A stretch of DNA of 63,913 nt, the filler included, from Reclinomonas americana ATCC 50394 (Eukaryota): NCBI GenBank assembly GCA_048213135.1. It is 13 parts of 13 records of this genome, joined end to end, with 100 filler letters (N's around TTAATTAATTAA, not from the genome) between each part and the next. Parts side by side here need not be neighbours in the genome. Positions count along the whole stretch, not along the records: positions 59,999 to 62,512 come from AFZH01017829.1; 12 more parts are not named here. One strand, 5' to 3'. A program made the translations under genes and the position numbers. Under the pieces are notes generated by a model. That model was not told the DNA's origin and did no database searches. It saw only the letters and a program-made list of their open reading frames with translations. Position 1 is the stretch's first letter. Each line of letters opens with the position of its first letter. Below are positions 60,101 to 60,815 of the stretch, piece after piece.

Positions 60101-60815
60101 AGAGGCAGAGAGAAGAGACAGCAAGGAGATGACAGAAGCTGCAGAGGCCCGAGAGAGACAGATGCATGGACAACAGCTGCATGGAGAGTGAGAGAAGCTG
60201 CAAAGGTCCGAGACAGAGAAGAGACAACAAGTGAAGACAGCTGAGATCGCCCCGACAATACATCGAGAATATTCCACAATGCATCTTCGCTGCCTTTCCG
60301 TCGAGTCTCACACTCACCGCTCCTCCGTGTTCATCACCGGCAACACTCCCTTCGCACGATACACCTCCTCATCAGTCGACACACCCACCACACTCACATC
60401 GCACAACATCTTGGCCTGTCGCAGTGCATTGGCATGACCATACTAACAAACAAACAAACAAAGAGAGTGAGAAAGGCGAGCGAGAGGCAGAGAGGCGCAT
60501 AGTGTCGCGCAACATGCTGTGTGTATGTGAGGGAGAGAGACAGTGAGTGACACGTGAGCGGAGATGACGACATGGCACACGCGCACCATCAGGTCGTACA
60601 CTCCGTCTGACCAGGCGCGAATTGGCTTCTTGCTGCGCTTGTGCTGTGGTTCGTCGACTGACTCGCCATGGCCGTTTGCTGTGTGTATGTGAGTGTACAC
60701 GTGTGTGTGTGTATCGACGTTCGTGTGGCACGCAACAGCCGCTGCCTGAGGCGCCGGTCTCGTCCTCCTCCATCTCCTCCTCGCGAGGTCGTCGAGTGCC
60801 CGCGCTCTCCGCCAT
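57143..60815 (-). CDS. PCYT2: Ethanolamine-phosphate cytidylyltransferase with two tandem cytidylyltransferase domains
   Basis: DGVYDLM[H][84 protein letters not shown]. The gene spans two gaps in the correct order. Confidence 0.95.

Follow-up and report, generated by a model that had tools for sequence, protein, structure and literature searches.

Introduction

Plants have constitutive microexons of 1-15 nt, which in APC11 and VPS55 are as short as 1 nt (Yu et al. 2022, PMC8831610). According to the same source, RNA-seq and RT-PCR confirmed the plant microexons, conservation of which extends throughout the land plants, and they often remain unannotated, which results in wrong proteins (PMC8831610). 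In animals, 3-nt microexons are reported for cytohesin-1 (PMC6314551), MAP4K5 (PMC8632122), and Drosophila homothorax (PMC7392893). Among the matches listed in a literature search, none described a microexon in a cytidylyltransferase gene, and cytidylyltransferases do not appear in the main text or in three supplements of the plant study (PMC8831610).

Mammalian PCYT2, which codes for an ethanolamine-phosphate cytidylyltransferase (ECT), is described as a gene of 14 exons with duplicated N- and C-terminal domains and two CTP-binding HXGH motifs (PMC3588000). Both histidines of the HxGH motif are described as critical for catalysis, and an aromatic residue at -2 from the conserved aspartate is said to position them (PMC6060094). 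For human and Plasmodium ECT, another source names the N-terminal cytidylyltransferase (CT) domain as the one critical for catalysis (PMC10033509).

Here, we analyzed a 63,913-nucleotide stretch of DNA from Reclinomonas americana ATCC 50394 (hereafter, the window), in which the first histidine of the N-terminal HxGH motif of an ECT homologue appears to be supplied by an exon of a single codon, CAT. A preliminary description of the window had placed this exon at 60516-60514 on the minus strand. When checked against the sequence, both the coordinates and the minus-strand layout proved exact.

Results

A gene predicted to encode a complete two-domain ECT homologue

The gene model (57143..60815) was obtained by tblastn with homologues combined with reading of the exon junctions, and its parts are listed in Table 1. 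As the presumed start codon, we took the in-frame ATG that lies upstream of a GTTGCG donor. The spliced model consists of 12 exons joined across 11 GT-AG introns and has 398 codons with no internal stop. Compared with a profile of 51 two-domain homologues, the 398-residue product matched over positions 20-374 with a score of 472.3 bits. Pfam PF01467 matched exons of both halves of the gene (exon 2, positions 11-50; exon 3, positions 53-106), and two tandem PF01467 domains are found in one polypeptide of ~400 residues. Among solved structures, that of human ethanolamine-phosphate cytidylyltransferase (3elb_A) is the nearest. Exon 2 aligned with its residues 21-61, beginning at Tyr21, with an E value of 5.8e-9, as compared to 0.08 for choline-phosphate (CCT) and 0.3 for glycerol-3-phosphate (GCT) cytidylyltransferases, and exon 3 matched both of its domains with an E value of 1.6e-20, as compared to 9e-6 for CCT. 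The gene is thus nearer to ECT than to either CCT or GCT. In addition, the sequence RTEG(I/V)ST(S/T), which is described as an ECT signature (PMC6060094), is present in the exon at 59155-59035, and the C-terminal helix is also found in the model. Judged from its predicted product, the gene is a complete two-domain ethanolamine-phosphate cytidylyltransferase (ECT/PCYT2) homologue, and the earlier assignment to PCYT2 is borne out by the Pfam, 3elb_A, and profile matches. A protein search by words of exon 3 returned 14 longer-protein candidates, none of which reached E<=0.001, and no annotated or transcript-derived product.

Table 1. Positions of the parts of the ECT gene within the window.
Feature	Position	Strand	Details
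First coding exon	60737..60815	-	Start ATG at 60815; ends with the first base of a Ser codon
Intron 0, 58 nt	60679..60736	-	GTTGCG...CTCACATACACACAG; its removal is needed to bring the ATG exon into frame with the exon that follows
Exon ...GAC CTG ATG	60587..60678	-	Beta-strand 1 of the N-terminal CT domain, from alignment to the homologue profile; last ATG at 60589-60587
Intron 1a, 70 nt	60517..60586	-	GTGCGC...ACACAG; CTCAC motifs; pyrimidine/CA-rich 3' end
Putative microexon CAT, 3 nt	60514..60516	-	Predicted first His of HYGH (HxGH, N-terminal domain); triplet at 60516-60514
Intron 1b, 71 nt	60443..60513	-	GTTGCG...TTGTTAG; TTCTCACTC motif and long T-rich tract
Exon 2, TAT GGT CAT...	60318..60442	-	41 residues and 2 bases of an Arg codon; TAT from 60442; Pfam and human ECT match
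Remaining exons, first four	59393-59214, 59155-59035, 58448-58313, 58249-58173	-	Homology-built model
Remaining exons, last four	58107-58030, 57974-57846, 57777-57680, 57221-57143 (stop included)	-	Homology-built model
Second-domain HxGH (FDLF-H-AGH)	58249..58313	-	First His codon predicted to be split C|AC; join homology-phased

Assembly gaps lie inside two of the ECT introns, and the gene covers three contigs, the order and orientation of which are correct. The gaps have the form N44-TTAATTAATTAA-N44, with a six-frame stop linker in the middle, and there are 12 of them in the window (for example, at 58606-58705, 59899-59998, and 62513-62612). Several of these linkers are bordered by GA/CT or CA/GT microsatellites. 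A small exon might have been lost inside a gap, although the protein aligns end to end with its homologues.

The second HxGH motif of the protein is also interrupted. The intron that splits the codon of its first histidine (58312-58250) is 63 nt long, lies in phase 1, and has the form GTTGCG...CAG. Thus, with the CAT microexon in the first motif and the C|AC split in the second, both HxGH motifs would be interrupted at or next to the same histidine, at positions that are not identical.

The CAT codon is predicted to complete the N-terminal HxGH motif

When joined directly, the exons that flank the CAT-containing interval encode DLM-YGH, as the preliminary description had read them. With CAT between them, the sequence becomes DLMHYGH, which matches G-x-[FY]-D-x-x-H-x-G-H at the spacing seen in homologues; the CAT-containing translation is comparable to that of the homologue P0005 (TKVWVDGCFDMMHYGHANAL). 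The aromatic residue that is said to position the histidines (PMC6060094) corresponds, in this ECT, to the tyrosine of GVYD.

As a homologue set, we used the best 150 matches to exon 3 from a library of 1.84 billion proteins, the best of which was no more than 58% identical to exon 3. HxGH was present in 108 of the 150, with a total of 167 motifs, and in 157 of these motifs an aspartate stood exactly three residues upstream. The 10 exceptions were nine models that start at M(M)HxGH and one unrelated chance motif. Among the same 150 best homologues, we found neither an insertion between the aspartate and the histidine nor a form without this histidine in an otherwise intact motif. In the model of the R. 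americana protein, an N-terminal HxGH located three residues after the aspartate would be present only when CAT is spliced in, and inclusion of CAT would be needed for this conserved feature.

The spacing also bears on an alternative reading, in which the interval holds a single intron that begins at a different donor. The upstream exon would continue as ...ATG GTG CGC GTG TGC CAT|GTCGTC (G at 60571) and be joined to TAT at 60442, so that the histidine would come from another CAT. Although such a form stays in frame, contains no stop, and places a His codon before a GT, it would insert four extra residues between the aspartate and HxGH, an arrangement found in 0 of the 157 Asp-anchored motifs of the 150 best homologues. 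Its donor, GTCGTC, scored -2.11 bits with the donor position weight matrix (PWM) of the gene, and none of the 11 ECT donors carries C at +3. Moreover, the acceptor and the GTTGCG donor that surround the second CAT would be left unexplained. A conventional predictor averse to 3-nt exons could plausibly pick this form; we consider it very unlikely to be the one that is made.

We also compared the three possible products with a profile of 51 full-length homologues. The product that includes the microexon scored 472.3 bits, the alternative-donor product 461.6 bits (10.7 bits lower), and the product that skips CAT 459.9 bits; since the 51 homologues had been picked for two D..H.GH motifs, this preference of 10-12 bits partly restates the motif counts.

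The nine homologue models that start at M(M)HxGH (P0015, P0019, P0031, P0053, P0083, P0104, P0119, P0121, and P0128) lack the preceding beta-strand. They are probably gene models from other organisms that were cut at the same spot.

Searches for related genes gave the following results. A scan of metagenomes with exon 3 yielded 332 pattern matches, which came down to three loci (L001, L002, and L003). L001 and L002 hold the same intronless ECT, ~45% identical to P0001, which offers no introns to compare, and L003 gave no tblastn match to the ECT homologue probes P0001 and P0005. A cluster look-up of 10 ECT matches showed that one homologue, P0008, belongs to Andalucia godoyi, and none of the 10 was traced to a close relative.

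Splice signals surround the CAT codon

The CAT codon is preceded directly by AG and followed directly by GT, and each of these dinucleotides forms part of a complete intron of plausible length. Within the 144-nt interval between the flanking exons, CAT is the sole in-frame cassette of the form AG|3n|GT, and the interval contains just two AG dinucleotides, both of which are the proposed acceptors. The acceptor of the microexon has the top score in the interval; its last 15 nt, CTCACATACACACAG, recur without change at the end of intron 0. On the other side of CAT, the donor GTTGCG is the same hexamer that begins five other ECT introns (60736, 59213, 58312, 58172, and 57679), each of which is fixed by protein homology across its junction. 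Using a PWM derived from the 10 other ECT donors, we found that the donor at 60513 ranks first among the 16 GT dinucleotides in 60600-60430, with a score of 7.89 bits. The donor of intron 1a, GTGCGC, is the weakest of the gene (-1.96 bits with a leave-one-out PWM). Introns 1a and 1b, with 70 and 71 nt, are just above the six other short ECT introns (55-68 nt), and each contains a CTCAC motif, which may be branch-site-like, together with a pyrimidine-rich tail.

Next, we estimated how often such signals arise by chance. Counting both strands of the 63.9-kb window, we found 27 copies of AGCAYGT, as compared to 23.9 in shuffled sequence. With 27 per window, ~0.03 occurrences are expected on one strand of a 144-nt interval. 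The longer sequence AGCAYGTTGCG has a single occurrence in the window, at CAT, where 0.18 would be expected per window and ~2e-4 per interval.

These numbers weigh against the view that CAT is not used at all and that the whole interval is removed as one 144-nt intron, leaving DLM-YGH and a catalytically dead or degenerate N-terminal domain. The chance of finding a flanked His codon at the very place where one is needed would then be ~0.03 or less. Such an intron would run from GT to AG and keep the frame, and degenerate second domains do exist in some ECTs; for Plasmodium ECT, a work in the reference list of PMC10033509 (Maheshwari 2013) is reported to have found only one of its two domains active. 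In this protein, however, conservation of the N-terminal domain is otherwise complete, none of the 150 best homologues lacks this histidine in an otherwise intact motif, and the domain concerned corresponds to the one on which the human and Plasmodium enzymes are reported to depend (PMC10033509). We therefore give hardly any credence to an unused CAT.

We regard it as highly probable, on the basis of the genomic sequence and its homologues, that CAT is a genuine single-codon exon that is spliced into the ECT mRNA. The single-codon exon put forward in the preliminary description would thus stand, being the only in-frame cassette of the interval and having a full acceptor and the commonest donor of the gene.

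Several further ways of reading the region were considered and rejected. If the whole interval is retained, a TAG at 60445-60443 ends the frame, and the same TAG keeps exon 2 from being extended upstream. If only intron 1b (71 nt) is retained, the frame is shifted. An out-of-frame ATG at ~60669 opens a frame that is ended by a TGA inside the same exon.

Use of the GTTGCG donor and possible relatedness of introns

When the donor at 60513 is counted, GTTGCG begins 6 of the 11 ECT introns, all on the minus strand, and GTTG begins 7 of the 11. As compared to the usual GTRAGT, this hexamer carries T at +3 and C at +5. An intron of a CDC14-like gene (30797, minus strand), phased by homology, starts with GTTGCG too; a textbook GTAAGT is located 13 nt further downstream, in the wrong phase for the conserved exon that follows. 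The use of GTTGCG suggests that this organism may have an unusual splice-site consensus. A literature search on GTTGCG or GUUGCG as a splice consensus gave nothing among the matches listed, which is not proof that such a consensus is unpublished.

The 15-nt ends shared by introns 0 and 1a (CTCACATACACACAG) are the only exact pair of this kind in the window. The two introns also have a common GTGCCA box near the 5' end, and 35 of the 58 bases of intron 0 fall in invariant columns of their alignment. This likeness suggests that introns 0 and 1a may be related as copies. If so, copying would explain how a 3-nt exon could arise beside an older intron. A broader account can be built on this view, in which the CAT exon is young and arose by local intron duplication, intron 1a being a copy inserted three bases upstream of the older intron, the weak donor makes it a skippable cassette, and the organism prefers GTTGCG to GTRAGT through altered recognition by U1/U6. 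We consider this account as a whole unlikely. Should it be true, the weak donor brought in by the duplication would turn the codon of a catalytic histidine into an on/off cassette. The GTTGCG donor and the identical 3' ends of the introns may outrank the microexon itself in interest, as they bear on splice-site recognition and on the multiplication of introns in this lineage.

Other features of the window

A search of the whole window with Rfam detected a 5S rRNA gene alone and no snRNA. The 5S rRNA gene (55930-56049, plus strand; RF00001, 103 bits) is on the strand opposite to the ECT gene, ~1.1 kb past the stop codon of the latter. Two tandem repeats were found, one at 53710-54555 (a 158-bp unit repeated 5.3 times, with 83% matches) and one at 61123-61480 (a 146-bp unit repeated 2.5 times), the latter just upstream of the ECT gene.

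Long intron-free open reading frames (ORFs) with WD40 propellers are present at 1210-5328 (-), 14530-15660 (-), 23243-24442 (+), and 27504-29489 (-). In an ORF of 1373 residues that belongs to this cluster, the N-terminal part resembles a NACHT NTPase (Atlas 0.88-0.91, with bacterial and arthropod NACHT clusters only), and the cluster also includes an ORF with TPR_10/TPR_12. By their domain content, the WD40, NACHT, and TPR ORFs look like STAND/NLR-like genes. Additional genes with Pfam matches are located at 30765-32796 (-), 48685-49521 (-), 21544-22119 (+), 25211-25912 (-), and 39057-40229 (+). They comprise a CDC14-like dual-specificity phosphatase (DSPn and DSPc), a SET-domain protein, two protein-kinase fragments, and a TFIIIC B-block-like ORF. 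The homologues of the CDC14-like gene in animals and green algae are 62-67% identical to it.

Discussion

How the CAT codon could be spliced

We infer that the sites on both sides of CAT are used by the spliceosome, most simply as follows. Introns 1a and 1b, of 70 and 71 nt, are probably two ordinary short spliceosomal introns, each of which is recognized on its own (intron definition). Because the 3' site of intron 1a and the 5' site of intron 1b are only 3 nt apart, two spliceosomes cannot occupy them together, and the two introns would be removed sequentially rather than simultaneously. Since no donor of the gene is weaker than that of intron 1a, and the one of intron 1b is strong, our guess is that intron 1b goes first. 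Once it had been removed, CAT would be the opening codon of an exon of normal size. Its inclusion would yield the canonical G-x-Y-D-x-x-H-x-G-H CTP-binding loop in the catalytically important N-terminal domain.

In the spliced model, skipping of CAT is in frame, as the preliminary description had noted, and it would remove a histidine that is called critical (PMC6060094). This raises the question of whether CAT is a regulated cassette, with both forms being made and the skipped form giving a full-length but inactive, possibly dominant-negative enzyme that would act as a switch of phosphatidylethanolamine synthesis. An in-frame skipped transcript would escape nonsense-mediated decay, and the upstream donor is weak. 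Introns that are short and intron-defined tend to be removed independently, however, and skipping would require this weak donor to reach past a strong internal pair of acceptor and donor to an acceptor further away. Precedents come from mammalian PCYT2, for which regulation through alternative splicing of a different exon is reported (PMC3588000), and from animals, where function-changing 3-nt cassette exons are described (PMC6314551, PMC7392893). On balance, we find regulated skipping quite unlikely, and the inclusion of CAT is probably constitutive.

Consequences for gene prediction

Predictors that are unable to place a 3-nt exon would either leave out the histidine or put four additional residues into the CTP-binding loop. 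Both kinds of mispredicted ECT would pass for a protein with a degenerate domain. That 9 of the 150 best homologue models start at M(M)HxGH hints that gene prediction often fails at this spot in other organisms as well. With one catalytic residue predicted to be encoded by an exon of its own, the locus is a natural place to seek control of the Kennedy pathway at the level of splicing.

Comparison with known microexons and with PCYT2 splicing

Mammalian PCYT2 belongs to the same family as the gene described here and shares with it the two HXGH motifs and the duplicated domains. Its alpha, beta, and gamma forms are reported to differ by an exon for an 18-residue linker or by a 3' truncation (PMC3588000), and not by a one-codon exon within HXGH.

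Like the 3-nt microexons described in animals, the CAT exon would add a single residue and thereby change the function of the protein (PMC6314551, PMC8632122, PMC7392893). Most of the animal examples are alternative cassettes of exon-defined genes with long introns, whereas the CAT exon, which would encode a catalytic histidine, is flanked by introns of ~70 nt and is expected to be included constitutively.

The CAT exon also resembles the microexons of plants, in which a tiny coding exon is likewise flanked by ordinary GT-AG introns and preserves a conserved feature of the protein (PMC8831610). The host gene is a different one, and the ECT exon, known here from sequence and homology, would correspond to exactly one catalytic residue. 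With exons of 3 nt and 1 nt already documented in animals and plants, the CAT exon of ECT would be a further example of this class.
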